Shown here: in pieces, positions 6,201 to 63,265 of the stretch
Position numbering within the stretch: the first letter of the stretch is position 1
How the letters are laid out: each line of letters starts with the position of its first letter
Assembly: GCF_030028105.1 (NCBI RefSeq)
Contig: NC_092377.1
Location: 123,398,242-123,462,241, forward strand
Direction: 5' to 3'
Source of the DNA: Mobula birostris
Lineage: Eukaryota
Length of the DNA stretch: 64,000 bases
Notes under the pieces: model-generated
What the model saw: only the letters and a program-made list of their open reading frames with translations
What the model was told of the DNA's origin: nothing
Database searches by the model: none
Made by a program: the position numbers and the translations under genes

Positions 6201-7581
6201 ATTTGCCGGCCTGCCTCTTTTACTTTTCTCCTTACTACCTTTTGCTTCCACCCTGATTATACACCCCTCTAACTCTTTGCACTCATTCCCATCCCTCTGT
6301 TGTGAACTAACCTCCTGTCTCCTTGTCTCTTTAATTTGATTCCCACCCCCCAATTATTCTAGTTTAAAGTCACCTCAGTAGACCTCGCAAATCTCCCCGC
6401 CAGGATATTGGTCCCCCTCGGATTCAAGTGTAACCCGTCCTTTTTGTACAGGTCACATCAGCGCCAAAAGAGGTCCCGATCTTCAAAAATTGAATCCCTG
6501 TCCCCTGCTCCAATCCCTCAGCCACGCAATTATCCTCCACCTCATTGCATTCTTACTCTCACTGTCGCGTAGCACAGTCAGTATTCCCGAGATTAGTACC
6601 TTTGCAGTCCTTTTTTTCTCAACTCCCTTCCTAGCTCCCTATATTCTCCTTTCAGGATCCCTTCCCTTTTCCGACCGATGTCATTAGTACCTATATGTAC
6701 CACGACCTCTGGCTCCTCACACTCCCACTTCAGGATAACTTGGACGCGATCAGAAATATCCCGGACCCTGGCACCAGGGAGGCAAACTACCATCCAGGTC
6801 TCTGGTCACTGAATCGCCGATCTGACCCCCTTACTATCGAGTCCCCTATTACTATTGTCCTCCTCTTCCTTTCCCTATCCTTCTGAGCTACAGGGCCGGA
6901 CTCTGTGCCGGAGGCACGACCACTGTCGCTTCCCCCAGGTAAGCTGTACCCCCCCCCCACAACAGTACTCAAACAGGAGTACCTACTGTCAAGGGGCACA
7001 GCCACCGGGGTACTCTCTGTTAGCTGACTCTTCCTCTTCCCCCTCCTAACCGTAACCCATTTGTCTGCACCTCCCGTGGCCCCGGTGTGACCACCTGCCT
7101 GTAACTCCTCTGTATCAACTCCTCACTCTCCATGACCAGACAAAGGTCATCGAGCTGCAGCTCCGGTTGCCTAACGCTGTCCCTTAGGAGCTGCATCTAG
7201 GCGCACCTGCCGCAGATGTGGACGTCCGCGATGCTTGAAGACTCCACGACCTCCCACATCCGGCACCGAGAAGAATAAACTGCCCTCGCACTCATACTGC
7301 CCCTCTCCTCAAATAACAACAAATAATGAATACCAAACCTTCCTTGCCTCGCCCGTTTCCGCCTAAGCCAGTTGAGCCGAAGCCCTTAAGCCTTCACTCG
7401 TCTCCCAGCTCACTCCGCCGCCCGAAAACTACGCTGCCCGCTGTATAAGGCTCTGTTCCTTTTAAATCTTCCGCGCTTCACTGCCCGACGTCACACGCCT
7501 GCGCAGCTCCGCCTCTCTGAACGCCGATGGGGAAAAAAAAAAACGGAAACTCAAAAATGGCTTTCTCTGCACTCCCGCTCC
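3263..7581 (-). mobile_element. Full-length CR1 LINE (ORF1 SGNH esterase + ORF2 EN/RT), disrupted
   Basis: (CATAGAAA)-type tail at 3260-3283; RT motifs YLDFQKAFDKV, GVPQGSVLGP, FADD; EN motifs GDFN, SDH; ORF1 GDSIVRG/HIGTND; 5'UTR matches the copy at ~57290. Confidence 0.95.
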
Positions 7582-10179: not shown

Positions 10180-11330
10180 GGTAGGGGGGACGACAGATAG
10201 TGGAGAGTACCCCTGTTGCCGTCACCCCAACAATAACTAACCATTTTCAGGACTGTTGGGTGGGATGACGTACCTGCAGAAAGCAACAGCGGCTGTTCTT
10301 CTGACACCGAGTCTGGGTCTGCAGCTCAGGAGGGTAGGGAAACTGAAGAGCATAACAGCAGTTATATGGGACTCTACAGTCAGCGGGACAGATATGCGAT
10401 TCTGTGGACGCAAAATGGAAACACGAATGGTAGTTGGTTCCACGGGTGCCAGGTTCCTAGATGTTTCTGGACACGTTCGCAATATCCTGAAAAGGGAGGG
10501 TGAGCAGCCAAAAGTCGTGGTACATATTGGTTCCATTGACTTTGGAAAAAAAAGTGAGGAGGACCAGAAAATCGAAATTAGGGAGTTAGGAATGAAGCTG
10601 AGAAGCAGGATGTCAAGGGTTCTAATCTAGGAATTCCTGCCTCTGTCACGCGACAGTGGCGATAGCAATAGAATGAGGTGGCACATAAATGTGTGGCAAA
10701 TGAATCTGAGCAGCGGGAAGGGATTCAGATTTCTCGATAATTAAGAACTCCTCTGTTGCAGGGGTGGCATGCAAAGACGAATGGAATTCACTTGAATCCG
10801 AGGGGATCGACATTCTTGCGGGCAAATTTACAAGAACTGTTGAGAGTGATTTAAACTAATATGACAGGTTGATGAAACCAGGATGATGGAGCTGAGGATG
10901 AGCCAGCAGGTTTACAAGTAGATGATGGTTGTACCATGAATGTAAGGGAGGACAAGCCAACGATTTATTACAAATGCAGATGGAGGATAGAGTTAAACTG
11001 TATCGTAGAGGCAAAGTTCAAAACGGCGAAGAATGCAGGACTGAAAGAGCTGTATTTAAATATGCATACCAACGTACTCGTGGTGCAATGAAAGACTGGT
11101 CGCTATGACGTTGTGGGCAATGCTGTGTCGTGGCTGAAGGAAGTCCATACTCGGAAGCTGAACATCAATGGATATACTTAGTGTCGAAAGGACAGACAGG
11201 AAGACATTGTTGGCTGTGGGGCACTGTTAGTAAGAGATGGAATTACGTCTTGAGAAAGAGGTAACATAGGGTCAAAGAGTGCTGAATCTTTGTGGAGGAA
11301 GTAAAGAAACTGAATGGGCAAAATAAACTA
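10180..11330 (+). mobile_element. Decayed divergent CR1: ORF1 esterase C-terminus and start of ORF2 endonuclease
   Basis: VIWDSTVSG, VVVHIGSID, ILAGKFTRTVESDLN* then EN-like remnants. Confidence 0.8.
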
Positions 11331-21110: not shown

Positions 21111-21239
21111 AAATTCCCCTTATTACTTGGTCAAGTTCCTGCGGTTCAGTATCAGCTTCTTGTTGCTCTTGTCTGTCCCCTACTGTTTGTTCCTCTTCAC
21201 CACTTACCTCGGGTGGCACACCTGACTGTACCTGCGGGA

Positions 21240-22220: not shown

Positions 22221-22399
22221 CAGTAAAGGGGTGGGAGCTAACAGTAGGCCATCTTCCGTGGTCCATAGGCCTTCTGGGTTCTGCTTGGCCCCCCTTCGTC
22301 TCCACAGAGTTTGTTCTGCCAAAGTTGCCTTTCCCTGTATTTCAATCAGGTCCTCTACCATAGGTTCCGGCTCTAGACTTACCTGGGGTGCAATAACAG

Positions 22400-22900
22400 C
22401 GGATGTACACCCAGACGCTTTCCTGCCTGCTTCATCTGCAGCTTGATTTCCCTTTGTTACTGTATCGTTTCTTTTTTCTGTGCCTGGCATTTTACTATAG
22501 CCAGTGCTTTAGGTTTCATCAGTGCTTTTATTAGATCTAAAATCTGCTGACAGTGCTGTATGGGATCTCCACTGCTCTTTTTAAAAAAATCTCTGTTTCC
22601 GCACTGCCCCAAACAAATGACACCCTCCATGAGCATATGCTGAATCTGTATAGATATATACATTCTCTCCTTCCATCATTTCACACGCTGTCGTCAAACA
22701 TCTGAATTTCGCTAGCTGGGCGGAGCACGGTTGGGGACGCGCCTCTATTCTGATGACCTTGAAGTCTGCCTGATTCTGTTGCACTACTGAGAACCCTGTG
22801 TGATTCCCATTGTGATCCCTGTAACAAGAGCCATCCACGAACAGGACCTTTTTATCTTCGTCCTCTAATGATTCCGATCGTAAATCTGCTCTCAATTTAG
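22400..22900 (-). pseudogene. pol: ERV RNase H (frameshifted)
   Basis: VLFVDGSC, SAQLA, IYTDSAYA, GNQAAD. Confidence 0.9.
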
Positions 22901-23746
22901 CGAATGTCATTGTTTTCCCTACACAATCATGGGGCTCTCCTTCATACCCTAAAGATACATAATCAGCTATGTTACCGGTGGTGCATCTCTGTATAGTTTT
23001 ATCTGGAAATGTCAGTAGCATCTGATATGCTGCTATCCTGGCTGGTCTCAACACGAATTTCCCTCTTTCCAGTAATTCTGCTACCTTGTGGCGTGTGTAC
23101 AGAATCACAGGATAGCCCATGGTTATGGATGATGCCTTTTCATATGCAGAGTATAGTGCCGCGAATCCCTGATATCAAGGTTGGTACCCCTGAGCCACCT
23201 CATCCAGTTTCGCAATGTAGCATGCTACCGGTTGCTTTGCTTTACCTGTGCCAGTCTCCTGCATTAGAACTGCCGTGGCATAACGCTCCTGTCGGTTGGA
23301 TACGTGCAGATGAAAGGCCTTCTCGTCGTCAGGCAAAGCTAATGCTGGGGCTGACTGCAATTCCTGCTTTATAGTATTGAAAGCCACTTCCGCCTCGTCT
23401 TTCCACTGTAGACTACTCCTCAAGTTTATGTGTCCTGCTTCCTTCATTATTTTCCTTAGTGGCATTACAATTTCAGCATATTCCCCAATCCAATCTGAAC
23501 TATATCCTGTCAGTCCCAGAAACGTCATCACCTGTCTCACTGTCTGGGGCTTTGGAGCTTTATAGGCTTTATAGGCTCAATATAATCCGGCGCTACCACC
23601 CTCGCCCCCTTGGATATCACTCTACCTAGGAATTCTACCTGTTGCTTGCAAAATTGCAGCTTCTTTCTAGATACCTTATGCCCTCCACGCACCAGTCTCT
23701 CTAAAAGGGTTATGGTATCCTGTTCACACTGTTCCTCACTTTCGGA

Positions 23747-25078
23747 TCAAATCAACAAAACATCCAAATACTGTATCAATGTACTTTCCAACGATATGCT
23801 ATCTAGGTCCGCCTTTAACACTTTATTAAATACTTGTGGTGAATGTTTAAATCCTTGCGGCATTCTAGTGTAGGTATACGGGTTGTCTCTGTATGTAAAT
23901 GCAAATAGGTACTGACACTGATCTGCCAGGGAAACGCTGAAAAAAGCCGAACACAAATCAATCACTGAAAAATGGTCTGCCTCTGATGGAACATTAGTCA
24001 AGAGTGTGTGTGGGTTGGGAACTACCGCTGGCCAGTCCTCCACTACCTCATTCACCGCTCGCAAGTCATGCACCAGTCTCCATTTAGATTTATCCGCTTT
24101 AAGGACAGGTAACAGCGGGGTATTACATAGGCTGTCTGTCCTTCTGAGTACTCCTGCCTCCAGTATCCCCTGTATCGTTGGCGCTATTCCTTCTTCTGCC
24201 TCTGGTTTCAAGGGATATTGTGATCTCCTGGGTGGAACTGCTCCCTTTTTCAGCTTTAATTCTACTGGACTGGCTGTTCTTATTCTCCTTACATCCGTGT
24301 TATGTTGTGACCACAGAATAGATGGTAACCTATCCAGCCTGTTATCTCTCTGCTGGCCGTCCTTCTTTCCCAATAACGTTAAGTGTGGTCGGGGAATTAC
24401 TTCGACCTCCTTCGTTGTTCCTACCATATCTGTATCTACCTCTATTTTAAAATAGCTGTTGTCTCCCGATATCCACACCGGTGGCATAATTTTCCTCCAC
24501 GCCGCTGCGGTTCCAGCCTGCTTTACTGAGGGTCCTAGGTGTTTAGACTGATGTCCCTCATTTACCAGCAGCGTTATGTGGGGCTCAGCTTCCGGTATCC
24601 TGCACCATTTTTCCAGGAAATTATTCCACCTGACTTGCAGGTCTGCCCCTTGTCTCCTAGCTATTATAGCTTCTCCTCTTAGGTGCTGCCGGTTGCCTGC
24701 CTCCTTGTTCCATCTCTCCTCTAGCTCTTCGTTCTGAGTTTCGTCAAAAATCACTGTACAATGTAACTCAGATTTGGGCGCTACAGCCTGAGGCAATATA
24801 GCCTGCACGCCCTTTTTCCACTTTTCCCAGCTTTCCCAGATCTGATCTTCTATGTCTCCTATCCAAAAGACATTAGCTTTCTTGACTTCCAGCACTAGTA
24901 ATTGAGCATTTACTCTTTCCACACTCATCCCACTTCTGGTACATTCTAATTTTAATTCTAGTTTCAACAGGGTATATCTGCCTAGCAAATTCATCGGAGT
25001 TCCTTTAGACACTAATATCGGCAAAACTATTCCTTTGCTGCCCATCCTTAATCTCATTGGAGCTGTACATTGTGTCAA
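23747..25078 (-). pseudogene. pol: ERV pol segment: protease C-terminus + 2H phosphoesterase-like domain + RT palm
   Basis: NLLGR (PR); LHCTV and PHITL (2H motifs); QYPL, NTPLLPV, WRLVHDLR, IDLCSAFF, RMPQGF; catalytic YxDD reads YLDV followed by a stop. Confidence 0.9.
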
Positions 25079-25084
25079 CCGTGT

Positions 25085-25317
25085 GTGTGTGTGTATTTTT
25101 TATTTTTTTTTCCCCGAGAACCCTACAGTCTTAATAAATTTCCCTGACATGGGAAGGTGAAGGGCATACTGTGCCTGTACCAAGTATACGTGGCTCCAGT
25201 ATCTATTATCATTGGTGTCAGCTGCCCGTCTAACACAACCTGAACAATGGGTCCCTCTTCTGCCTCCGATGTTATCACTGGGTAGTGTCCCTTCCCACCT
25301 GAGTTCTCTGGGTACCC
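25085..25317 (-). pseudogene. pro: ERV aspartic protease N-terminal part
   Basis: MIIDTGATY at ~25186-25212, in frame with the gag stop; interrupted by a (GT)n/(T)n run at 25081-25111. Confidence 0.88.
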
Positions 25318-27573
25318 CTAATGTCTTGCATAGGGGTTCACGGGTCCGCTCGGGCCTGCGGGGACTGGTGCTTTTCTAGACTGTGGTTCCCATCTCATTG
25401 GTTCCCGCCGGTACGTGACGGCCCATGGCTTAAGTGGGCAGTCCCTTCTCATGTGTCCTGGCTGGTTACATCCCCAGCACAGTCTCTGTATCTCTCGTTC
25501 CCTTTGTTTCCTTAATTGCCCTTCCTGCCCATAACCTCTCTGCCCCCGTCCTTGGGATTTACAGTCCTGTCTGGGTTGCTGTTTAAATGTATCCTGTCCC
25601 TGTTAGGTCATTTGCGGAAAAGCTCCCCCAAAGACGTTTATTATTGGCACAGGGTTTTCTGGGCTCTGTCTTACGGCACGACCGGTCCCTCCATAGCATG
25701 GCATTCATTCATTTCAACGGCTGTGCTTAAATCGGTCACCACTGGCAGCATCTTCTTGCCGTTTTCTTTTTCCTTCTTTTTAAGTTCGTCAAGCTGCATT
25801 TGTATCAGCTTTCTCTGCACTTCTTCTTGCTGCTCAGTCAACTTTCGTTTGTCTTTCCGATATTTTTCGACAGCATGGACTACGTGGTCCCTGAATTCCT
25901 GTGGGGTCATTGACATCAGTCTAACCACTTCCTCAAGTTTAAACTTAACTTGGGGAGGCATCCCATCCAAAACATTATTTCGGAACATCACTGTCATAAA
26001 CGGGTTGCCTTCCACCTCTTGTTCAGTTTCCAGTCTCCACCTTTTCAACTGATTTTCCATATAGGCTGTTGGATTTTCAGTGCCTCCCACTGGATCCCCT
26101 TTCATGGCTTTGGGGTCCATTTTGGGCGGATAGAGCTCCCTGAGGCCCTCCATACCCTCTGCCTCACTGTGTGAAATTTGGCCCCGTCAATCACTGTGCT
26201 GTCCACATTCTGTATGCCAGCCACTTCCATCAGCTCTTGTAGTTTGGAGGTTCTCATCAGCCTTATCAGCAGCGCCTTCAAATCTCCCATAGCCAACATT
26301 CGTCCCGTGCACTCTTCCTCAAAGGCCCTAATCCACTTCCCTGCACCCTCATGTAGGCTGGGCAGGGTGTTTTACAACCCTTCCAGGTCCTGGAATCCCC
26401 AAGGAATATAATGTACATGTCCCAATCTCTTTACTAGCAACGACATCATTCTCCCTTTCCTTTCCCTCATATCCTGACTCTCCACCTCGCCTGACTCCCC
26501 ATTCCCCATCAGTTTCTGAGCACGTTTTTACTGGCTTTCGCATGATTCTTTCCGGGGTTTTCTTTCTCCCTTGGCCTCCTCGTGGAGTTCTTCCTTTTTG
26601 CCTTGAGCTAGCATTTGCTTGGGCCCATGTGAAATCCTCCGCTGTCATCTCCTAATCTCTTCCTCTGTTTCTAATATCTGCCTTTTCACTCTCTCTTTTT
26701 CCCCTTCCAGGCTTCTATCTCTTATCCTCTGCCTACACTCTCCTGCACCCTCTCTTTCGCTACTTAACTCTTGGTCTCCCGACAAGTCACCCTCTGCTCT
26801 GGCCTGTTCAGTTTCGTGCCCATATAACAAAGCTTTCTCGTCATCCCTTTTCGTTTTTAATTCCTGTAACCCTTTGATCTCCTCCTCTATTTCCCTTTTC
26901 TCCTGTTCTATCTTTGCCCTGTCTCCTTCTATTACCTTCCGTGGTTCCTCCTGCTCCTTTTTGTGATTCTTTCTTTCCTGCTCGGTATCCCAGACTTTAA
27001 TTTCTCAATTTAGATCCACACTTCCTGTTATCATCGGACACTGCTTAAAGGTTTCTTTCTCATAATAGGGATGAGGTTTTTCTACGTCTTTCAGGTCTGG
27101 GTACAGAGCCGAAGCCGACTCCCTGTTATGCTTTTCCTTTTCTTTATCAGACTGCTCCTTTCGTTTCTCGCTGACTTTTGTAATTACTATTAATATACTT
27201 CCCGTCTTTCTTAAACTTTCTCCCTCCATCCTAAAGAGTTTTAACACTTCCATTTCTTGTTCCCTTTTTTCCTCTCTTGTCTTAGATTTATCTTTGGGTT
27301 TGCGATTTTTAATTAGCGCTTTCATTTCCTCACATAAGCATACATCAAACGTTTCTTCTCTTGGCCATTTCGTGACCAGTTTTTTAGTTCTTTTAATTTG
27401 CACCTCGCCTTTCCCTGCCCGTTCAGACCTTCGTTTCGGTCGCAGCGGTATCCACAGGGACTTACCAACACCACGTGGAATTATCCTACTTATTACTACT
27501 TTATTCCAACTTCCCCTTACTGCCGTGCTCTTAATTAATCCTCTGAGTCTCCTTTTATCCCCAATTTTCCCAT
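25318..27573 (-). pseudogene. gag: ERV gag (disrupted)
   Basis: Probable MG start at 27573; capsid-like segment 25671-26400; zinc knuckle CWGCNQPGHMRRDC at ~25438-25479; TAG at 25320-25318. Confidence 0.85.
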
Positions 27574-27674
27574 ATGCTTTGAATCAGAGAGTCCCTTCGG
27601 CAGTTGCGTCACTCTTCTGAGCCTCGAGACCCCTAAAACCAACAGAATTGTTCGTCCGAATTATCGCAAAAAGC

Positions 27675-37134: not shown

Positions 37135-37983
37135 CTGTTACAATAAAGAGTATTTAAGTTCAATCGCAATTCACAATTCCAAAGCACTTTGGCATACCAT
37201 ACAAGAAGAACTCAGCGGGCAAGGCAACGTCGTTAGAAAGGAATAAACAGTCGATGTTTCGGGCCAAGGCTGTTCATCGGGACCTGCCCAAAGGTGTCCT
37301 CCAGCATTGTGCACGCATTACTCTGAATTTTGCAGTATCTAAAGTATCTTTTGTGTTACCACTATCCCAGTCACGACTACAAAAAATGAGCACAACTAAC
37401 ACTAATACAAAGTTTTGAACGGACCCTGAACCAAATGGAAGGAGGTTCGCACAAGTGGATTTCTTTGCGGAAACATCCAACCTCCAAACATGTGTTTTTT
37501 TTTTTTTTTTCAAACCATGTGATTAAAAGCCTTTTTGTAACGACAGGTATCTTCCAATGACAATTTAGAATTTGTTTCTTACGTTCTGGTGTTTGAACGC
37601 ACAGCGCTGTTAATTAAGAGTGTTACACTACTCGGGCATTTTAATTATTTTTGTGTGTGCAACTAAGAAAAACAAAATTCAATGCAGCAGAGATCAATTA
37701 AAGATGAAAATCGATACGGGAATCCTCAAATAAAGTCGCTGGTTCTCAGCCAAAAGAAGACATAGCGTCATTGTTGTTATGCAATGTGGATAAGAGTTTG
37801 AGAGCATTTCAAACAAAATACAAGTTAGAGTATATGGCGTGCGAGATATTTGCAGAGGATAAGAGGGAAAGAGAGTGAGAGAGCGGCAGGGGGAGAGAAA
37901 AAGAGAGACAGAGACGATCGCCCAGGTTCAGTATTGCTGACCTTTGATTCTGTGTTAGGCAACAATTACACCTCAGTCCTTAC

Positions 37984-38271
37984 CTGATGATTCGTGGTGG
38001 AATGTTCCGTTACTGGTACCGTGTACGTTCACCGCAACACAGGAGATGAGTTGCACGGCACCAGCCTGGTGACTCAATATCAGTGAGCCCTGCGTGACGA
38101 ATTTCTCCAGCATGAAGCCGGTGACACGGAAACGTTTGCTCTGCCCGTATAGAGCCTTCCCATTGACTCTCCAGGTGATGGTTGCTGCTGGTTTGGCTTT
38201 CACCTTACACGTACAGTTGATCCAACTCTCAAAGCTTGTGCAGGTCGGGCCAGACACATTCTCGGGTGGAT
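37984..38271 (-). CDS. Siglec-like gene, exon 4, membrane-proximal Ig domain (MAG domain-5-like CxC pattern)
   Basis: ttctttag|..G|GTAAGG, 288 nt phase 1-1; YPPENVSGPTC..INCTCKVKAKPAATITW..ISCVAVNVHG. Confidence 0.88.
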
Positions 38272-39254
38272 CTAAAGAATTAAGTCATTTGTACAGATAT
38301 CTTGCGACATGCAGCTCATGAAATAAAGTGGATTGAGATTTCATCCTCCAGTGCCTGTCTCACTAACCCTCTCTCCACTCTCTAATTTATATTGAATCTA
38401 TACCGTCTACTCTTACAGAGTTTCAGCAAGAAACGTTGAAAATTCTTGCACGAACTTCACCACCCACGCCCCTCTCCTTCTCACCTCACTGATTTACCTG
38501 GACCAGCTGTGTAAGCTCCCCATGACGAATCTAATACCAGACCAAAAGCATTTTAATATCGTGAATGGACTGAAGCATCGGAATATCTTCCTTGTGCTAG
38601 GCAAGGTCTTATTATCTCGGGGAACTAAGAAACATTGATCCGAGTCCAATATGAGCTCAGCAGTAACCATTAATTTACATTAATTGGCTTGATATTTATT
38701 TATCTTTTTTTTCACTCTTCAAACTCTACCCCTCACCAACCCCAACAAAAGTAGGTAGAATTTGCAGTGTATAATTAACCAAGAGAGAGGTTGCAATGTC
38801 ATTAAGTACTTCAGATTATTTACTAGTGGGGAATGGGACAGGATAGATCTACCCAAGTAACTGTCCACTGCATATGTCTGAGATTCAATGACTAAGATTT
38901 AATTTTAATATGGTTTCATTCAGGAGGCACACTGAACCTGGGTTCAGTTGTGTCCTCGTGTGATCATGGTGTGGATCTCTCACGTTCCCTTTAAAAGATT
39001 TATTTTAGTTAGTGCGAAAAATGGTGATAACAAGAAGGGCTGGAAGCCAGAGAACATTATTCAAATTGAATCCGTGGAGGCGCATGCCGATCGCAAAGGC
39101 ATTCTTCATGACAATGTGTCAAGAAAATTGCATCTACGTTTTGCTGCAGAAGTATAGGTGACAATTTAAGTGAAAGACTGCTGGCAACGATGGTGTGGAA
39201 GCAGTGTACGTGTTCCATTTATTGTTATAATATCACGGTGTTATCCAGCATGGT

Positions 39255-41495: not shown

Positions 41496-42706
41496 TATCC
41501 AGCACGGAAAAGGGGCCCTTGCTCTTACTCACTCATGCTGAACAATCTGTTGCCCTGAGTCACACTCATTTGCCCTCGTTTAGTTCAAAACGCTCTATAG
41601 CATTCATATCCATGAAACAACCAAATATCTATTAATTGTACTCGCTTCAACGACTCCCTCAAGAAACATTTTGCCGAAACCCTCTATTACTTGCGTAAAG
41701 AATGTTGCACTTCGTGTCCGCATTAAATCTGGTCCCTCAGGGTTCACGCTGAGAAAGGGATCTGTGAAGATCTGCTCTGTCAATAGACATCGGAGTCTTA
41801 TGCACCCCCACTACTCCGCTTTAGATAAAACAGAACCGTCCATCTAGACTCTCCACGTGTCGAGTCCCGTGAATCGTGCTTGCACACTCCTTAAATTAAT
41901 CAGATGTTCCCTGCAATATGGCGAAGAGAATTGCCCACAATGAAGCAATTTTATCAAATTGCCTCCTGTGCATTCAAAAATTAAGTAACTTGATATTCGC
42001 CAGAGGGGCTTTATGTGCAAGAGACCTCAGAAAATCCGTTTGCAAGCCTATGGCAAGGAGATGTCAATCTGTCGTTGGGTCTTAAGAAAACGTGGTGGGT
42101 GTGTGGGGGAAAAAAAATACTGCGGTCAGAACCCAGTCACGACAATGTATGCAAACTGGGCGGGCACGGGGCAATTGGTCTGGTTCTGATTCATTGCATT
42201 GTTTCATTGCTAATGCTTGATTTTGGAGCACTCATCGGCTAATGTGCCTACACTGGTACAAAATAAAAATAATTAAGGGCAGTGGCAAAGCCCAAGAGCA
42301 GTCCAGTACATAACAGTCTTCAGGTCAATTGTAGAAGCTCAACAATAGGCCCATTCAGTCGCGAAATCACTGTAGGCATTAATTTGTGACTGATAGTCTA
42401 CTCGTAACCTTTTAAAAGGTATTGTCAGAAACCATGGAAACACCTGTGCGACCCCGATAGACCCTCCACGTCAATCAGATTAATGTACCAGAGCAAGCTT
42501 CTGGGCAGAACAATACATGGTCCACTCCGATATCTGAATGTAAACCTTACCCCTCAATCATCACTTTGGACTGTATATCCTCGCCCCTTTAAACCATAAG
42601 ACCATAAAAGTATTAAGGAACCATGAAGGAAGTAATTATTATTTAAGGAAAGCAACGGGTGAATTCATGTTCACCATTATTGACTATAGCTTTGGGAAAC
42701 ACTCAC

Positions 42707-43009
42707 AGTGGACATCCAGCGTAAAATATGCCGTATTTCTCCGGCTGGTACCATCCGTTGTAACTTCACAACCAATACGTTTACTGTCATGCTTCGGTGA
42801 AGGAGTGAATGTGAATTTAGTGGAGATATTCTGAGGACTCTGAATAGTCTCGCCGTTTTCTTTTGAACCTTGAATTATTGCCATCAGTTCTTCGTCGAGA
42901 ATCCATTTTAGCCTGAATTGGGCGGATGGACAACTGTGATTTAGTGAGCAGGTCAGGTAGCTCATTCGCCCAGCGACGACGTCTTGAGGAACTGATATCT
43001 GTGGTTCAG
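42707..43009 (-). CDS. Siglec-like gene, exon 3, C2-set Ig domain 2
   Basis: ttaacag|..T|GTGAGT, 303 nt phase 1-1; EPQISVP..LTCSLNHSCP..W..FTPSPKHDSKRIGC..TLDVH, including the extra HSCP Cys typical of Siglec domain 2. Confidence 0.9.
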
Positions 43010-43257
43010 CTGTTAATAAAGGTAATTGATATATCATGAAATACTTTTTTTGTATGTTTTTATTGAAGTTGATCATCAAACAAACATTTCAATAGGATGT
43101 ACTTCAGATACTGTGCGTAAATATCATACAATCATATTTGTCAAATATTTTTAATTCAAAAATAAAATAATTGGAATATTCTTGTCTCACTCCCCGGTAG
43201 GACAGATTTGCACCGTCAATATTAAGTCAATGTAATAAAATTGCAATTGCGTGTTAG

Positions 43258-44139: not shown

Positions 44140-46460
44140 ATAGCAGTGCTAATGGTTTCAGAGGCTGTTTTATCTATTTTTTGTTTGTTTGTTATTCAGC
44201 TCTCTGGGGGATGTCCAGCTTCCCGGGTAGTCAGACCTGCACCAAATGCACCGAGCTGTAGCTACTCATAGCAAGTCTCAAGAAGTTAGAGCGGCAGCAC
44301 GACGACCTTCGCCTCATACGGGAAACAGAGGAGGCCATAGTTATGAGCCACAGTTTATGGAGATAATCACGTGTAAGTTGCAAAATGCAGCTAAATGTGT
44401 GACTGTCCGGAGAGGGAAAAGAACTGGGCAGCCAGTTCAGTGTGTCCCTGCGGACGTTCCTTTCAATATTCAGTATAATGCTTTGGATAATGTTTGGGGA
44501 ACAATCTATCCTAGAGGAGCTGCAGCGACAGGTTCTCCGGCTCTAAGCCTGAAGTGGCTCAGAAGGTAAAGGAGAGAGGGTAATTACGGAAGTGGTAAGA
44601 GATTCCACAGTTAAAGGAATAGACAGGAGATCCTGAGGAAGATAAGCACACCCGGATGAGCTGCCTCCCAAGTGCCAGTTTCAAGGATTTTGCGGTCATG
44701 TCCACGACATTGTAATGGAGATAAATAGTGTCTTAGTGAATATTGGCACCATTGCCATAAGTAGGAAAATGGAGGAGGTTATGAAGTGGGAATGCAGGGA
44801 ACTTGGAAGAAAGCTGAAAAGCAAGGCCTGATGGACAGCAATCTCTGGTTTCTGTCTTTCCCACACACCAGTAAGGGTAGAAATGGGCTGAAATTTCATA
44901 GGGAATGCACAGCAAAGAAAATGGTGAAGGAGCCACCTGATTTTCGATCATTGGGATCTCTTCTGAGGAATGTATTACCTGGACAAAAGGGACATGTTAC
45001 GCCTCAACCCGAAGTGGATCAATATGCTTGCTGGCATGTTGGTTAGAACAGTTAAGCATGTGATGGGAAGCTTAGTGGCAGTGCTGAGAATGGGGCATCT
45101 GGTGTTCAAATAGATGCAGTGTTCTTTATGAGTCTGTGAGGACCGGCAGGCATATCAAAAATGCAAAATTGCAATCAGTTGGTTATCCTGCTGTGTAGCA
45201 CAGGGTCAAAATCGTTAAGGAGACTAACACAGGTCTGAAGGGGTTATATCTGAAGGCACACAATGTATAGAATAAGGTAGATTATCTTGCAGGGCATCGG
45301 ACATTGCCTTGTATGACGCTGTGGCATCACTGAAGCGTGGCTGAAATAGGATTATATTTATCAGTTTAAAGTCCAAAGAACACATCGTATGGAAAAAAAT
45401 AGGCAATTGACTAAGGGTAGGCTTGGCTCCGTTGGTAAAATATGAAAAAGAAATATTTTGGAAGAGGTGACAAGGGAGCAGAAGAAGCAGAATTCTTGGT
45501 GTTAGTGTTAAGAAATTTCAAAGTTAAAAGACCCTGGTGCGAGTTGTGTGCAGCCTTCCGAGCAGTAGCTAAGATGTGGTCTAAAAATTACAACGGAGGA
45601 CAGAGAAGGCATAGCAGAAGGACAAGGTTTCGAACTCATGGAGGGTTTCAATGTGTAGGTAGATTGAGAAGATTAGGTTGCTGATTTATCCGAAGATAGA
45701 AATTTTCGAGAATAACTTTGAAATGGGCTTTTCGAACAGCTTCTTATTGAATCCACTCGTGAATATATATTCTGGATTGAGTACTGTGTCGTAAACGGAT
45801 TTAATTAGGGAACTTGCGTTAATGAACCCAGTAGGAGACAGTGACCATCATATACAAATGAAAAATTCGCATTGATTTCGAGAGTACAAGATAATACAAA
45901 CAAGAATATAATTTTGGTGATTTATTGTAATGTTGAGGTATTACTGGGAGTATTTTTAGCAGTTTTTGTCCCCTATCTTGGAAAGGATGTGCTGACATTA
46001 GAGACGGATCAAAGTAGGTTCACGAAAATTATTGCAGTAATAAAAGGCTTATCATATGAGGAACGTTTGATAGCTGTGGACCTGTATTCGCTGGTATACA
46101 AAAGAATAGGTTGGGGTCTCATTGAAACATATCGAATGTTGAAAGGCCTAGATAGAGTGAACGTGCAGAGAATGTCTGTGAAAGTGGGCGATTCTAATAC
46201 CAGAGGGCATAACCTCAGAATAGAGGGACGCACCTTTCCAACGCAAGTAACGAGGAATTTCTTTAGTTAGAGTCTGGTAAATCCGTGGAATTCGGTACCA
46301 CAGGCGGATGAGCTGGCCAGGTTATTAGAAGTATTTAAGGCGGAGGTGATGTGCTCTGGATTAGTCATGTTGTAAAAGGGAAATGGATCGATCTTAATGA
46401 AATGGCTGAGCAGACTCGATGGGCCTAAAGGCCTAATTCGCCTTGTAAATCCTATGGACT
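44140..46460 (+). mobile_element. Decayed, internally deleted CR1 (ORF1, EN and RT-end remnants)
   Basis: CTKCT/DDLRLIRE-like ORF1 remnants; LGKDVLTLE..GLSYEERL..RGHNLRI. Confidence 0.7.
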
Positions 46461-46824: not shown

Positions 46825-47686
46825 AGTACCTCTTCCTAGAGATGTTCTCTGGCCTGCTACGTTTACCAGCAACTTTTATGTGTGTTGCAGGTTATAACTA
46901 TACGCTCTTCCATTTAGCAAAGTGCTGATTTTATGGAAATGTACAACATTTTGAAGACTTCTAACAGCTTAACGGTTAGCCTGGCTCTGTTTGCAGAAAC
47001 AGGAGTCACATACTGAAAATTACAGTTTAACATTCGGGACCAAAAGCAGGAAGTTGTTCGTGCATTGATCGTGGGTAACATTTGAATTCACTAAGGGCTC
47101 CTGCGGAACAGAAAGAGAGTGAGTTGAAACGTACAGAACAGTGGAAGAAACTTATGGCGACATCATTAGATGCATTTAATGTTGGAAATTTCACATTGAG
47201 AAAGTTGAGAGAAGTATAGCCTCCGCGGACCCCTTTATGAAGAAATCCGGTCAGTGGTTCGGTTTTTAATCTTATCCGAGAATATTTATGGAAGGCATAG
47301 ATATTCTGCATGTGGCATAGCAACGTTATTAGCTGCAGTGACATGAACGTACAAATCATATGCTGACTGATATTTTGCAGGGACAACATTACCTTGGGCG
47401 TGTAGGTTGTGCTAGAACACAGTGAGTTGGGGAATAGAATAGATTAGAACATGAGATTAGATTATGAGGAATACAATAGATGCCTGGCTATAATAGATGT
47501 TATCATATCAACAATAAATCGGGGTCACCAGCTAACAAACATTCGGATAGCTGTAGGAGCAAAACCAAAGGTTGGAGAAGAAACACGGGAGACGATATAC
47601 ATCGATATAAATAATGCGTATATACATAATACGTATCTGTAAAACGTCAATATAAACTAGAAACGCAGATCTAGAAGAAAACTTAC

Positions 47687-48055
47687 TTATAACAGAAACT
47701 GTGACGCAGCCATGCTCATTTCCTTTCGTTAGCCCACTTAGGTTTTCCAAGGTCACCCTGAAGCAATAGACGCCTTTGTCAGCAAAGCTGACGCCTTTAA
47801 TCCGTAAGGAACATTCATTCTGAGCTAGGTTGCCAGTGAATTCTGCTCGTCGTTCATAAATAGAGGATATTTTTCCTTTCTTGTAGATAATAAAAACTTC
47901 TTTCTCTAGAGGATCAGATCCCCCTTTTAACCACATACCGTGTGGGTTATAGAGTCCCTTCCTCTGGTCAAATGTGCACTGGAACTCCATACAGCTACCG
48001 TACACAGCCCAGAGTGTCCGCGGAACATTCACAGAAAGTGACGTGGTCTGTACAA
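47687..48055 (-). CDS. Siglec-like gene, exon 2, V-set Ig domain with essential Arg
   Basis: ttgtttcag|..A|GTAAGT, 369 nt phase 1-1; GSCMEFQCTF, W, ECSLRI, DKGVYCFRV (Arg codon 47759-47757). Confidence 0.92.
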
Positions 48056-49008
48056 CTGAAACAAAACAATCAATCAAGTATCCATACAATGAGGTGAAAG
48101 TATGATTGATGGTACTTGACCCGGACAAATACACCGGACTGACTTGCAAATTAAATACAATCGACCGAAATAGTGCTGTAGAGCAACGGGCCCTAGAGCT
48201 GTGGTACATTGTCCTTTGGAAGTGGAGACCAACGCAGAGCAGGTTGTAAGGATGTTTTTTGTCACGCATTATCTACCATGGCATTACCTACAGGTGTTGC
48301 GGTGTCATGTTACAGCTAAGAACATATTGCTGAGTCTACACTTCTAGATCTCTATGCATTTCTGGGCGACCTACGAAAGGAAAGATAGCAACAAGTGATT
48401 AAAAAAAAAATCGGAAAGGGTTTCGCGAAGACTCAACCGGAGTTGAAGTACTTATGTGCTAAGGAAAGATCAGATAGCCTGGCTATACAGAGACGCGTGA
48501 GTGATGACATTCTAGATGTTTGCAAAATCACGGATTTCTGCCATAAGTTTAATGGCCATAGTCTCTTTCTAGGTGTAGTAGAGTGTGAAGCGAAAAAGGA
48601 TCATTGGTTTAAATAGAGAGGAGAAAGATTTCAAAAGGAATTGAAAGTCAACATTGACACAGAGGGTGGTGGGTTTGTGGTTCGGGCTGTCAGAGACGTG
48701 GAAGGTGTAGATACAATCACGGCCTTTAAATAAACAGGACAGATGCGCAGATCAGAAAGGAATAGAGAGAAATGGGCCTAACGCGGACAACTGGACTAGC
48801 TCCAGGAGAGTACATTAGTCATGGAAGATTAGTCGGCATGGAAGAGCTATGCTGGAGGGCCTGGCTCCACGCTGTATATCCGTCTGTCTCTTCCTGACAT
48901 ATCATACTTATATTAAATTGTGTTGTTAAATCTCGAGCACACAACAACTTGGTGTGCAATAGGAATAATTTATCCAGGGCTGCATTAGCAATATTTTAAA
49001 ATGCATAC

Positions 49009-57050: not shown

Positions 57051-57583
57051 CGTACTGTTCCAAGCTAACCTATCATATATATTAAGCTACTGCAATGTGA
57101 CTCTTAGCTCAGTTGTTTGAGCAATGAAGGCGGAAATGCCACACACAAAGATTTGTAAATACGAATCCTGCTTAGAGGACTCTGACTATGTACTGAATAT
57201 ATCCCGTTTAGGTTTTGTATGTAGGTTTTGACTCTGACTATGTACTGAATATATCCCGTTTAGGTTTTGTATGCTTCGAAGAAGGAGTCTGAGAGTCTGA
57301 GTGGGAGTGCCGAGAAAGACATTTTTAAAATTTTCGTTATTTTTTTCTCCAACGGCGTTCTGAGAGGCGGGACTGCGCAGGCGTGTGACGTCGGGCTGTG
57401 CAGCGCGGCAGATTTAAAAGGAACAGAGCCTCATAGAGCGGGCAGCGTAGTTTGCGGGCTGTGGAGTGAGCCGGGAGCAGACTGAAGACTTAAGGGCTTC
57501 GGCTCAACAGGCTTAGGCGGAAACAGGCGAGGCGAGGGAGGTTTGGCATTCATTTTCTGTTGTTATTTGAGGAGAGGGGCAGT

Positions 57584-58516
57584 ATGAGTGTGAGGGCAGT
57601 TTGCTGCTCTCAGTGCCTGATGTGGGAGGCCCTGGAGCCTACAAGCCTCCCGGACGTCTACATCTGCGCCAAGTGCATCGAGATGCAGCTCCTTAGGGAC
57701 CGCGTTACGGAACTGGAGCTACAGCTCGATGACCTTCGTCTGGTCAGGGAGAGTGAGGAGGTGATAGAGAGGAGCTGCAGGCAGGTGGTCACGCCGGGAC
57801 CACGGGAGGCAGACAAGTGGGTCACGGTTAGGAGGGGGAAGGGGAAAGGTCAGGTAATAGGGAGTACCCCGGTGGCTGTGCCCCTTAACAACAGGTACTC
57901 CTGTTTGAGTACTGTTGGGGACAGCTTACCCGGGAGAAGCGACAGTGGCCGTGCCTCCGGCACAGAGTCCGGCCCTGTAGCTCAGAAGGGTAGGGCAAGG
58001 AACAGGAGGGCAGTTGTGATAGGGGACTCGATAGTAAGGGGGTCAGATAGGCGATTCTGTGGACGCAGTCCAGAGACCCGGATGGTAGTTTGCCTCCCTG
58101 GTGCCAGGGTCCGGGATATTTCTGATCGTGTCCAAGATATCCTGAAGTGGGAGGTTGAGGAGCCAGAGGTCGTGGTACATATAGGTACCAATGACATAGG
58201 TAGGAAAAGGGATGAGGTCCTGAAAGGAGAATATAGGGAGCTAGGAAGGGAGTTGAGAAAAAGGACCGCAAAGGTAGTAATCTCGGGATTACTGCCTGTG
58301 CCACGCGACAGTGAGAGTAGGAATGCGATGAGGTGGAGGATAAATGCGTGGCTGAGGGATTGGAGCAGGGGGCAGGGATTCAAGTTTTTGGATCATTGGG
58401 ACCTCTTTTGGCGCAGACGTGACCTGTACAAAAAGGACAGGTTGCACTTGAATCCTAGGAGGACCAATATCCTGGCAGGGAGATTAGCGGGGGCTACTGA
58501 GGTGACTTTAAACTAG
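57584..58516 (+). CDS. CR1 ORF1p: zinc finger/leucine zipper + SGNH esterase
   Basis: ATG at 57584; CSQC..CAKC; coiled coil; GDSIVRG, GA, HIGTND, DRLH. Confidence 0.9.
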   Translation: MSVRAVCCSQCLMWEALEPTSLPDVYICAKCIEMQLLRDRVTELELQLDDLRLVRESEEVIERSCRQVVTPGPREADKWVTVRRGKGKGQVIGSTPVAVPLNNRYSCLSTVGDSLPGRSDSGRASGTESGPVAQKGRARNRRAVVIGDSIVRGSDRRFCGRSPETRMVVCLPGARVRDISDRVQDILKWEVEEPEVVVHIGTNDIGRKRDEVLKGEYRELGRELRKRTAKVVISGLLPVPRDSESRNAMRWRINAWLRDWSRGQGFKFLDHWDLFWRRRDLYKKDRLHLNPRRTNILAGRLAGATEVTLN

Positions 58517-61500
58517 AATGGTTGGGGGGTGGGAATCAAATTAAAGAGGCTAGGCGTGAGGAGGTTAGTTCACTACAGGGGGATGGGAACCAGTGCAGAG
58601 AGGCAGAGAGGTGTAAAGTGAGGGTAGAAACAAAAAGTACTATGGAGAAAAGTAAAAGTGGCAGGCCGACAAATCCAGGGCAAGCATTAAAAAGGGCCAC
58701 TTTTCAGCATAATTGTATAAGGGCTAAGAGAGTTGTAAAAGAGCGCCTGAAGGCTTTGTGTGTCAATGCAAGGAGCATTCGTAATAAGGTGGATGAATTG
58801 AAAGTGCAGATTGTTATTAATGATTATGATATAGTTGGGATCACAGAGACATGGCTCCAGGGTGACCAGAGATGGGAGCTCAACGTTCAGGGATATTCAA
58901 TATTCAGGAGGGATAGACATGAAGGAAGGGGAGGTGGGGTGGCGTTTCTGGTTTAAGAAGAGATTAACACAATAGAAAGGAAGGACATAAGCCGGGAAGA
59001 TGTGGAATCGATATGGGTAGAGCTGCGTAACACTAAGGGGCAGAAGACGCTGGTGGGAGTTGTGTACAGGCCACCTAACAGTAGTAGTGAGGTCGGAGAT
59101 GGTATTAAACAGGAAATTAGAAATGTGTGCAATAAAGGAACAGCAGTTATAATGGGTGACTTCAATCTACATGTAGATTGGGTGAACCAAATTGGTAAAG
59201 GTGCTGAGGAAGAGGATTTCTTGGAATGTATGCGGAATGGTTTTTTGAACCAACATGTCGAGGAACCGACCAGAGAGCAGGCTATTCTGGACTGGGTTTT
59301 GAGCAATGAGGAAGGGTTAATTAGCGATCTTGTCGTGAGAGGCCCCTTGGGTAAGAGTGACCATAATATGGTGGATTTCTTCATTAAGATGGAGAGTGAC
59401 ATAGTTAATTCAGAAACAAAGGTTCTGAACTTAAAGAGGGGTAACTTTGAAGGTATGAGACGTGAATTAGCTAAGATAGACTGGCAAATGACACTTAAAG
59501 GATTGACGGTGGATATGCAATGGCAAGCATTTAAAGGTTGCATGGATGAACTGCAACAAATGTTCATCCCAGTTTGGCAAAAGAATAAATCAAGGAAGGT
59601 AGTGCACCCGTGGCTGACAAGAGAAATTAGGGATAGTATCAATTCCAAAGAAGCAGTATACAAATTAGCCAGAGAAAGTGGCTCACCTGAGGACTGGGAG
59701 AAATTCAGAGTTCAGCAGAGGAGGACAAAGGGCTTAATTAGGAAGGGGAAAAAAGATTATGAGAGAAAACTGGCAGGCAACATAAAAACGGACCGTAAAA
59801 GCTTTTATAGGTATGTAAAAAGGAAAAGACTGGTAAAGACAAATGTAGGTCCCCTGCAGGCAGAAACAGGTGAGTTGATTATGGGGAGCAAGGACATGGC
59901 AGACCAATTGAATAAATACTTTGGTTCTGTCTTCACTAAGGAGGACATAAATAATCTTCCGGAAATAGTAGGGGACAGAGGGTCCGGTGAGATGGAGGAA
60001 CTGAGCGAAATACATGTTAGTAGGGAAGTGGTGTTAGGTAAATTGAAGGGATTGAAGGCAGATAAATCCCCAGGGCCAGATGGTCTGCATCCCAGGGTGC
60101 TTAAGGAAGTAGCCCAAGAAATAGTGGATGTATTAGTGATAATTTTTCAAAACTCGTTAGATTCTGGACTAGTTCCTGAGGATTGGAGGGTGGCTAATGT
60201 AACTCCCCTTTTTAAAAAAGGAGGGAGAGAGAAACCGGGGAATTATAGACATGTTAGCCTAACGTCGGTGGTGGGGAAACTGCTGGAGTCAGTTATCAAG
60301 GATGTGATAACAGCACATTTGGAAAGTGGTGAAATGATTGGACAAAGTCAGCATGGATTTGTGAAAGGAAAATCATGTCTGACGAATCTCATAGAATTTT
60401 TTGAGGATGTAACTAGTAGAGTGGATAGGGGAGAACCAGTGGATGTGGTATATTTGGATTTTCAGAAGGCTTTTGACAAGGTCCCACACAGGAGATTAGT
60501 GTGCAAACTTAAAGCACACGGTATTGGGGGTAAGGTATTGGTGTGGGTGGAGAGTTGGTTAGCAGACAGGAAGCAAAGAGTGGGAATAAACGGGACCTTT
60601 TCAGAATGGCAGGCGGTGACTAGTGGGGTACCGCAAGGCTCAGTGCTGGGACCCCAGTTGTTTACAATATATATTAATGACTTGGATGAGGGAATTAAAT
60701 GCAGCATCTCCAAGTTTGCGGATGACACGAAGCTGGGTGGCAGTGTTAGCTGTGAGGAGGATGCTAAGAGGATGCAGGGTGACTTGGATAGGTTGGGTGA
60801 GTGGGCAAATTCATGGCAGATGCAATTTAATCTGGATAAATGTGAAGTTATCCACTTTGGTGGCAAAAATAGGAAAACAGATTATTATCTGAATGGTGGC
60901 CGATTAGGAAAAGGGGAGGTGCAACGTGACCTGGGTGTCATTATACACCAGTCATTGAAAGTGGGCATGCAGGTACAGCAGGCGGTGAAAAAGGCGAATG
61001 GTATGCTGGCATTTATAGCGAGAGGATTTGAGTACAGGAGCAGGGAGGTACTACTGCAGTTGTACAAGGCCTTGGTGAGACCGCACCTGGAGTATTGTGT
61101 GCAGTTTTGGTCCCCTAATCTGAGAAAAGACATCCTTGCCATAGAGGGAGTACAGAGAAGGTTCACCAGATTGATTCCTGGGATGGCAGGACTTTCATAT
61201 GAAGAAAGAATGGATGAACTGGGCTTGTACTCGTTGGAATTTAGAAGATTGAGGGGGGATCTGATTGAAACGTATAAGATCCTTAAGGGATTGGACAGGC
61301 TAGATGTAGGAAGATTGTTCCCGATGTTGGGGAAGTCCAGAACGAGGGGTCACAGTTTGAGGATAGAGGGGAAGCCTTTTAGGACCGAGATTAGGAAAAA
61401 CTTCTTCACACAGAGAGTGGTGAATCTGTGGAATTCTCTGCCACAGGAAACAGTTGAGGCCAGTTCATTGGCTATATTTAAGAGGGAGTTAGATATGGCC

Positions 61501-61554
61501 CTTGTGGCTACGGGGGTCAGGGGGTCTGGGGGGAAGGCTGGGGCGGTGTTCTGA
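58507..61554 (+). pseudogene. CR1 ORF2p: APE endonuclease + RT, with a single premature TAA at 58954-58956
   Basis: ORFs 58522-58956 and 59002-61554 are in one frame; NARSI, ITETW, GDFN, SDH, FADD all present. Confidence 0.92.
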
Positions 61555-62054
61555 GTTGGATGATCAGCCATGATCATAATAAATGGCGGTGCAGGCTCGA
61601 AGGGCCTAATGGCCTACTCCTGCACCTATTTTCTATGTTTCTATGTTTCTATGTTTCTTCCTGAGCTCCAGTCCGATTAAGCTCTGAAAATCACAACTCT
61701 CCAGGTAACGAAAGCATTCAGTTTCAGGAAATTTCCTGATAGTTCGTCAAAATACACACATAACAGTGAATGAATTCGGCAAGTTCGGCAGCGTTTGTGG
61801 AAATAGGATGTCGACATTTCTAGCCAAGGACTTTCAGCAGTAGTGCAAACGAAAGGGAGAAGTAAGAATAAGAAGGTGGTACAGAGGTAGGAGGACAAGC
61901 TAGAAGGTGATAGGACAACGCAGGTGGATGAGTTAGGAGGGATGAAGTAAGAAGCTGGGAGAAGATATAAAGAAAAGGTAAAGGTCTAGAGAAGAAGGAA
62001 TTTGATACGAGAGGAAATGGTCCTGCACCTATGTTCTATGTTTCTATGTTTCGA

Positions 62055-63265
62055 TAACTACCTCTTTTATACCCCTTCCCACTCTGCCACATGCAAAAAT
62101 GCCATTCTCTACTCCCAGTACCTCCGTCTCCGCCGCATCTGCACCCATTATGAGGTTTTTCGTTTCAGGACATCTCAAATGTCCTCTTTCTTTAAGGATC
62201 GTGGTTTCCCTTCTGCCGTCTTCAATGATGCCCTCACCCGCATGACGTATATTTCCCGCACTTCGGCCCTCACCGCATTCTGCAGCCACCACAACGGGGA
62301 CAGAGTTTCCCTTGTCCTCACCTACCACACCACCAGCCTCCGGATCCAGCACATTATCCTCCGCAACTTCCGCCACCTTCAACAGCACCCCACCACTAAG
62401 GACATCTTTCCCTCTCCACCACTCTGAGCTTCCCGCAGCGATCGATCCCTCCGCGAGACCCTGATCCAGAATTCCCTCCCCACGGATCTCCCACCCAGCA
62501 CTTATCCCTGTAAGCGTAAGTGCTACACCTGTCCCTACGTCTCCTCTTTTGCCACCATTCAGGAACACAAACAGTCCTTCCAGGTGAGGCAACACTTCAC
62601 TTGTCAGTTTGTTGGGGTCATCTATTGCATCCGGTGCTCCCGGTGCAGCCTCCTCTACATCGGCGAAACCCGACGCAGATTAGGTGACAGCTTCGTCGAG
62701 CACCTCCGCTCCGTCCGCCACAACAGACAGGATCTCCCGGTTGCCGCCCACTTCAACTCTGCTTCCCATTCCCATTCGGATATGTCCTTACATGGCCTCC
62801 TCTGCTGCCATGATGAGGCTAAACTCAGGTTGGAGGAGCAACACCTCATATACCGTCTATGTAGACTCCAGCCTCTTGGTATGAACATAGAATTCCCCAA
62901 CTTCCGGTAATTCCCTCCCCGTCCCTTCCCCTATCCCTATTTCACTCTGCCTCCTCCCCCAGCTACCTATCACCTCTCTCATGGTTCCGCCTCCTTCTAC
63001 TACCCATTGTCTTTTCCCTTATTCCTTCTTTACCTTTTCTGCCTATCACCTCCCTGCTTCCCCACCACACCCCTTTTTCTTTCCCCTTACTGGTTTTTCA
63101 CCTGGATCCTACCAGCCTTTTCCTTCCTACCCTCCCCCCACCTTCTTTATAGGGCCTCTGCCCTTTCTCTCTTCAGTTCTGACGAAGGGTTCCAGCCCGA
63201 AACGTTGACTGATCGTTTCCACGGATGCTGCCCGACCTGCTGCGTTCCCCCAGCGTATTGTGACT
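62055..63265 (+). mobile_element. 5'-truncated Penelope-like element (second family)
   Basis: GVIYCIRCSRCSLLYIGETRRRLGD..EH GIY-YIG (62584-62910), pyrimidine-rich 3'UTR, terminal repeat. Confidence 0.9.
63173..63212 (+). ncRNA. Minimal hammerhead ribozyme motif (second PLE family)
   Basis: TCAGTT-CTGACGA-A-GGGTT CC AGCCC-GAAA-CG-TT^GACTGA. Confidence 0.68.

Follow-up and report, generated by a model that had tools for sequence, protein, structure and literature searches.

Within a 64,000-nt stretch of the Mobula birostris genome (assembly GCF_030028105.1, contig NC_092377.1, positions 123,398,242 to 123,462,241 of the forward strand; hereafter the window, in whose own numbering all coordinates are given), the two open reading frames (ORFs) of a CR1-type long interspersed nuclear element (LINE) meet at a site with three defining features of a -1 frameshift signal: a slippery heptamer in phase, a -1 ORF that is open and has no conserved start codon, and conservation at synonymous sites. 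From these sequence comparisons we consider it probable, at roughly 80%, that the CR1 endonuclease and reverse transcriptase arise within an ORF1p-ORF2p fusion, produced by programmed -1 ribosomal frameshifting. The element and its junction comprise the following features:

57296..61657, plus strand: CR1-type LINE copy of full length, its ORF2 interrupted by a single in-frame stop.
57584..58516, plus strand: ORF1, 310 amino acids, with a Cys-rich N-terminus, an SGNH esterase and the C-terminal end EVTLN before the stop.
58507..58513, plus strand: slippery heptamer U_UUA_AAC, in X_XXY_YYZ phase.
58514..58516, plus strand: ORF1 stop TAG, directly 3' of the heptamer; in the -1 frame, CTA G.
58524..58533, plus strand: G-tract G6-T-G3, beginning 10 nt past the heptamer; candidate stimulator.
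58578..58587, plus strand: second G motif, 54 nt (18 codons) past the first; not conserved.
58513..58758, plus strand: linker between the slip site and CVNARS, the first endonuclease motif; no stop in the -1 frame.
58642..58644, plus strand: sole in-frame ATG ahead of the endonuclease motif; most of the depth has AAG instead, making ATG the minority allele.
58507..61554, plus strand: ORF2 frame, with an AP-type endonuclease (PF14529, E 1e-9) and a reverse transcriptase (PF00078, E 1e-32).
7583-3260, minus strand: sister copy of the element, 88.9% identical over 4374 columns.
6359..6368, minus strand: heptamer and TAG in the sister copy.
10850..10859, plus strand: heptamer and TAA in a decayed, divergent CR1 copy (71% DNA identity).

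ORF1 of the plus-strand element ends in ACT TTA AAC TAG (58505-58516), with T TTA AAC at 58507-58513, and the -1 frame taken from the heptamer reads FKLEWLGGGNQ, the same frame as ORF2 and its reverse transcriptase; CVNARS follows 84 codons downstream of the heptamer in that frame. A preliminary description of this DNA had claimed both the X XXY YYZ phase and the entry of a -1 slip into the ORF2 frame, and both claims are confirmed. TTTAAACTAR occurs three times in the window against 0.38 expected, a count reached in none of 100 shuffles, and all three sites (6359-6368 on the minus strand, 10850-10859 and 58507-58516) lie at CR1 ORF1 ends. The heptamer and stop are thus present in the minus-strand and 10850 copies, as had been described; the decayed copy at 10850, which has many stops in the -1 frame, backs the heptamer and lends no support to the register.

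The ATG at 58642-58644 is the only Met codon upstream of the endonuclease motif, and the earlier observation that this codon (in TMEK) is AAG in the sister copy extends to most of the family depth. Contigs of four runs were aligned on 58430-58690 (X1 and X13 being one sample): the T>A change giving AAG accounts for 59% of the depth in X1, about 100% in X5 and 64% in X13, and is present in the single contig that represents X9. One of the runs is marked 'RNA?' but probably consists of DNA. No variant of at least 3% was seen in 58507-58542, to which we attach little weight, since end stretches of 30 and 44 nt were equally variant-free. The G-rich motif had been described as occurring twice; the first copy proved to be conserved and the second not, having an A within it in the sister copy and G>A at 58579 in half of the X5 depth. 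When junctions from other ray CR1 families are aligned, they fall on the second copy (58578), which is likely an in-frame duplication in the linker of the window family.

Conservation was followed in metagenomes with a seed that lies about 140 codons upstream of the junction and is independent of it, V[CV]CLPGA[RG][VI], yielding 30 loci. Fourteen reach the end of ORF1, the other 16 ending before the junction and being excluded; 11 of the 14 carry exact TTTAAAC, one (L013) TTTAAAT, which is still canonical, one (L012) is decayed, and in L014 the junction is deleted. Setting L014 aside and including the three window junctions gives a table of 16, of which 15 enter the counts per position (L005 ends 5 nt past the stop). 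Most of these loci are bird-type, by similarity to the ORF1 of a swift (Chaetura); L004, L013 and L021 form one family, here called annelid-type, whose nearest named proteins are those of the tubeworm Ridgeia (86-88%). Identity among ORF1s of the ray, bird-type and annelid-type lineages is 24-37%. Scans of genome contigs and plasmids gave no CR1 junction DNA, and neither did those of viral contigs, which returned one weak locus without the heptamer (L001) and 62 loci with motif matches, none encoding CR1 ORF1 or ORF2 and all treated as chance.

Of the 15 junctions, 14-15 retain each of the heptamer's first six bases and 13 its last. The wobble T is present in all 15, under a residue that varies over the 16 junctions (T, D, C, A, Y or S), and third positions of the upstream ORF1 codons match in only 4-11 of 15. 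TAG or TAA stands directly after the heptamer in 12 of 16, and G5 at offsets +17 to +21, exactly 10 nt past the heptamer, is kept in 14-15 of 15. The endonuclease motif could be located in 11 junctions; in 9 of them it falls in the -1 frame, in 8 of these 9 without an intervening stop, across linkers of 36-88 codons. The annelid-type L004 has no Met before this motif, and none until inside the endonuclease domain.

Among six intact ORF1s, only 1 of 15 invariant esterase residues is written with one codon common to all, whereas all six retain the terminal TTA and AAC, against a background in the same ORF1s of 12 TTA among 119 Leu codons and 14 AAC among 30 Asn codons. Between the three deep ORF1 lineages, the same codon serves the same residue in 7/37 to 23/45 cases. 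The terminal codons have been fixed while those of invariant esterase residues diverged, and the constraint is therefore on nucleic acid, not on protein; as read from these alignments, it acts at the RNA level across the ray-, bird- and annelid-type families. Taken together, the kept heptamer, the wobble T, the choice of TTA and AAC, the -1 register and the lack of a universal AUG are, at the level of sequence, the signature expected of tandem -1 slippage. The Gag-Pol-like ORF1p-ORF2p fusion proposed in the preliminary description is supported by this conservation of heptamer and register amid diverged synonymous sites, the fusion being the predicted product.

A comparison with CR1 consensus sequences, which had been proposed as a check, points the same way. 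We used the first 400 nt per sequence of supplement Table 2 of PMC13343379, a motif-led and partial sample with most full-length junctions outside it. Within it TTTAAACTAR has 20 matches: 17 at ORF1/ORF2-type junctions, two in shark 5' regions and one in an AT-rich L2. The 17 junctions come, as we interpret the row codes, from alligator, crocodile, coelacanth, chimaera, bowfin, bullfrog, a teleost, stingray, sawfish, catshark and dogfish, and a lizard row has the heptamer followed by TGA. Six synonymous variants of the heptamer gave 14 counted matches in 13 rows of this sample, none at a junction. G5 stands at exactly the window spacing in 6 of the 17, the others being gappy, shifted or without G5. 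In SquAca_CR1-3 and SquAca_CR1-18, TTTAAACTAR occurs once more, after a GG, in the 5' region that precedes ORF1.

At the protein level, ORF1 homologues ending in LN are found in sharks, rays, chimaera, birds, lizards and turtles. In a 50%-identity protein search with a profile lacking the terminus (the representatives being partly redundant), 110 of 150 representatives reach the profile end, 94 of them with a tail of 8-35 residues, and LN is the C-terminal end in 64 of these 94 complete termini. A residue without a T-ending codon (K, Q, E, M or W) precedes LN in 1 of the 64, against 3 to 20 of 64 at nine upstream positions. When 285 complete esterases were clustered at 70% identity, the C-terminal dipeptide was among the 16 encodable by a canonical heptamer in 44 of the 70 clusters, against a background of 154/2030 (7.6%); the teleost esterase clade has no compatible ending (0 of 7 clusters). 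A clade containing snow crab ends in QGN, SGN or SKN, which at the protein level fits G_GGA_AAC and A_AAA_AAC; before GN stands Q in five clusters and S in one, and Q never precedes LN. Judging from protein ends, this clade has apparently switched to other canonical heptamers.

Two side observations concern these proteins. Five crab-type esterase ORF1s (P0354, P0408, P0336, P0412 and P0341) end in QGN, SKN, GFFR or GFLG, or have SKN internally near the end, hinting, at the protein level, at several alternative slippery heptamers in one clade. P0022, a shark-type CR1 ORF1 with 60% identity, is labelled in NCBI as an SGNH hydrolase of Pseudomonas aeruginosa, a label that likely reflects host contamination of an assembly.

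The route we propose would run as follows. U_UUA_AAC allows the P- and A-site tRNAs to re-pair one base back: tRNA-Leu on UUA in the P site and tRNA-Asn on AAC in the A site would re-pair on UUU AAA. The majority of ribosomes would not slip, would stop at UAG and release the 310-aa ORF1p, and a minority would slip and read on as ...T-L-N-L-E-W-L-G... through the linker, giving a product of about 1,320 aa from an intact copy. Slippage would fix the ratio of ORF1p to ORF2p and, as with Gag-Pol, keep the enzyme attached to the ORF1p particle. The G-tract, placed near the mRNA entry channel of the ribosome, would likely supply the pause, which is the weakest step. The stimulator would most likely be an unpaired G-tract, either bound by protein (compare the C-rich motif of the virus PRRSV) or forming a weak quadruplex, with help from the adjacent stop codon.

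A number of observations weigh against programmed frameshifting. Two of the 11 junctions with a located endonuclease motif (L021 and L027, both decayed) are out of register. The terminal dipeptide is incompatible with a canonical heptamer in 26 of the 70 esterase clusters, some of them broken copies and some real exceptions (ECRG at the end of the protein; VVGR is a further such terminus), Glu precedes LN in two clusters, and the crustacean switch is a putative one, read from protein ends only. Downstream of the heptamer, no conserved stem-loop was found at the canonical 5-9 nt, RNAalifold giving 0 pairs in 7 bird-type junctions, and single folds reached a z below -2 in only 1 of 10 (L002), with a structure starting far downstream. 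On these two negatives a conserved downstream hairpin was rejected, pseudoknots being outside the scope of both methods. A universal G-quadruplex was rejected as well: only 3 of 10 junctions are predicted to form a two-tier quadruplex, and there is just one G run in the annelid-type families. A duplex scan of the G-tract against the element, made without a shuffle control, gave no standout or consistent long-range partner. With no conserved structure and few quadruplexes, the canonical second element of a -1 signal is therefore missing or unusual in CR1 junctions.

On the same side of the balance stand the facts that favour coupled termination and reinitiation, the alternative that survives best, although we regard it as unlikely. 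Ribosomes would restart on the adjacent -1 codon, be it AUG or any other, and make a separate ORF2p, the heptamer and G-tract acting as cis elements of reinitiation. An in-frame AUG lies two nt past the stop in 5 of the 16 junctions (L002, L003, L006, L009 and L028), and 3 of the 17 published ones (ScyCan_CR1-1a, SquAca_CR1-17a and SquAca_CR1-6c) have an overlapping stop and start in UAAUG, the junction used by SART1, influenza B and Cryphonectria hypovirus 1 (CHV1) (PMC2699510). Human L1 ORF2 works from non-AUG codons (PMC1965478), the LINEs tested to date (SART1 and human L1) reinitiate, and Haas et al. 1997 refer in their title to 'two closely spaced' ORFs. A conserved ORF2 AUG, which the preliminary description had named as evidence against its proposal, is thus found in some subfamilies and does not extend across CR1: 11 of 16 junctions lack an AUG close to the stop, L004 and the sister copy have none ahead of the endonuclease motif, and the window family has no conserved adjacent or overlapping stop-start. 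Coupling in CHV1 tolerates changes of spacing (PMC2699510), whereas the CR1 register is fixed. Reinitiation also leaves unexplained the exact match of the seven conserved bases to a tandem-slip motif, the constancy of the wobble T under six different residues, and the apparent switch to other canonical heptamers. Given the AUG or UAAUG in some junctions and the tolerance of L1 for non-AUG codons, reinitiation therefore stays alive as a rival, and some subfamilies may use both routes.

Less likely still is a role outside translation, in which the motif would serve, as RNA or DNA, in packaging, ORF1p binding or transcription or as a preferred site of template switching, and ORF2 would start at variable downstream Met or near-cognate codons. 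The conservation of the G-tract in sequence and not in structure would fit such a role, as would the TTTAAACTAR upstream of ORF1 in SquAca_CR1-3 and SquAca_CR1-18. However, such a role gives no reason to expect the exact codon phase, the stop right after the heptamer, or open linkers that differ only by whole codons, and a start at a downstream Met is at odds with L004, whose first Met lies inside the endonuclease domain. Protein constraint with common descent, whereby the esterase needs its C-terminal Leu-Asn and the DNA has simply not diverged, draws on the terminal Asn being the sole invariant residue of the last helix (in rows chosen for complete ends), but is already largely refuted and scarcely credible, given that synonymous ORF1 sites elsewhere have diverged (7/37 to 23/45 same codons), that the teleost esterase clade does without LN (0 of 7), and that the wobble T and G-tract are left unexplained.

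If programmed frameshifting is the correct reading, a wider version of it may be entertained, although we hold it as doubtful: that esterase-ORF1 CR1s throughout bilaterians (sharks, rays, birds, reptiles, coelacanth, annelids and decapods) make the fusion by an ancient -1 frameshift, stimulated not by a fold but by a single-stranded G-tract that is likely protein-bound, possibly by ORF1p.

The assignment of the element itself to CR1 rests on several features. Canonical CR1 3' ends consist of short tandem repeats, not poly(A), and the 57296..61657 element has such an octamer-repeat end, together with an SGNH esterase ORF1 and an ORF2 with AP-type endonuclease and reverse transcriptase. ORF1 matches Pfam PF13472 (SGNH esterase, E 9e-16) and the ORF1-encoded protein of PDB 4c1b_A (E 2e-26), and its top match is a Mobula protein (93%). 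In the esterase tree it clusters with ORF1s of sharks, birds and reptiles and separately from the teleost clade, and junctions resembling that of the window carry CR1 labels in the published consensus set, with one labelled Crack. The ORF2 frame is in two pieces, 58501-58956 and 58957-61554, separated by an in-frame stop at 58954-58956; this copy is therefore broken. No target-site duplication of at least 7 nt was found in the scanned flanks. Two further features of CR1 type were noted:

61630..61657, plus strand: 3' tail of the element, three octamer repeats and one partial.
44214-45044, plus strand: fourth, old CR1 ORF1 relic, without the heptamer; its junction is decayed or deleted.

Other elements share the window. 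ORF fragments at 19440-27583 (minus strand) resemble a retrovirus- or gypsy-like element broken in many places, with gag-like, reverse transcriptase/RNase H and integrase pieces and an envelope-like transmembrane piece at 19771-20136. Pieces that by eye look Penelope-type (reverse transcriptase, then a GIY-YIG-like domain) lie at 14217-16160 and 17137-17757 (minus strand) and at 61990-62910 (plus strand), the last beginning about 330 nt past the CR1 tail, with a 35-nt match between them. Exon-like frames at 37973-38284, 42684-43088 and 47532-48272 (minus strand) resemble, by eye, immunoglobulin domains, and probably belong to a host gene whose region holds these elements.

How LINEs translate ORF2 is an open question, which a CR1 frameshift, if true, would answer for CR1. 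The CR1 group is the dominant retrotransposon in most vertebrates (PMC13343379), and in chicken no interspersed repeat is more abundant than CR1, at 11.8% of the genome. A LINE would then be using the retrovirus-like Gag-Pol strategy, and the true N-terminus of CR1 ORF2p would shift, which affects annotation, calls of intact copies and retrotransposition assays. The candidate frameshift cassette would be very short (heptamer, stop, 7 nt, G5), with an unusual stimulator; were the protein-bound G-tract also true, one of the commonest vertebrate retrotransposons would possess a frameshift that is both protein-switched and non-viral.

Frameshifting in CR1 was the subject of no paper returned by our literature search; the original papers on CR1 and the Repbase/Dfam notes lay outside it and may mention one. 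The main-text excerpt of PMC13343379 makes no mention of overlap, start codon, translation or frameshift, its supplement excerpt none of frameshift, and the searched part of the Atkins 2016 review (PMC5009743) does not mention CR1. Frameshifting in non-LTR elements is not new, since both Dictyostelium TRE5-A/TRE3-A and some Penelope-like elements are stated to use it. In TRE5-A/TRE3-A, which are APE-type elements of the L1 clade, a -1 frameshift is stated to be necessary for ORF2 (PMC5911963, figure legend); unlike CR1, they belong to a different clade and a different host kingdom and have no esterase. Some Penelope-like elements have an optional frameshift between ORF1 and reverse transcriptase, with a pseudoknot (PMC8557442, Fig. 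1 legend), but are of a different class, with a GIY-YIG endonuclease, and the legend does not carry the statement over to CR1.

SART1 and human L1 resemble CR1 in having a bicistronic LINE RNA whose ORF2 depends on translation of ORF1, and the earlier statement that the LINEs studied mostly use reinitiation or coupling agrees with what is reported for them (PMC2881922, PMC2699510, PMC1965478). They make a separate ORF2p by reinitiation, however, whereas the CR1 junction conserves the slip motif and not a start codon, with UAAUG in few CR1 families.

The coronavirus ORF1a/1b site shares with CR1 an identical heptamer and a downstream polymerase in the -1 frame; U_UUA_AAC is the frameshift site of SARS-CoV-2 (PMC8915115), in agreement with the preliminary description, which had recognized UUUAAAC as the coronavirus 1a/1b slippery site. 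In coronaviruses a pseudoknot follows after a short spacer, while in CR1 there is an immediate stop and a G-tract 10 nt on, and no conserved structure was found. PRRSV frameshifts with a C-rich motif and no structure (PMC8915115): at its nsp2 site, PCBP and nsp1beta act on that motif, so that, as we suggest for CR1, a short downstream motif replaces structure. The CR1 motif is G-rich, the PRRSV one C-rich, and the CR1 binding protein is putative, so the analogy is one we infer. The vertebrate esterase-ORF1 CR1s, finally, are like the window element in having an esterase ORF1, an ORF2 of APE and reverse transcriptase, and the same junction between them (PMC13343379).

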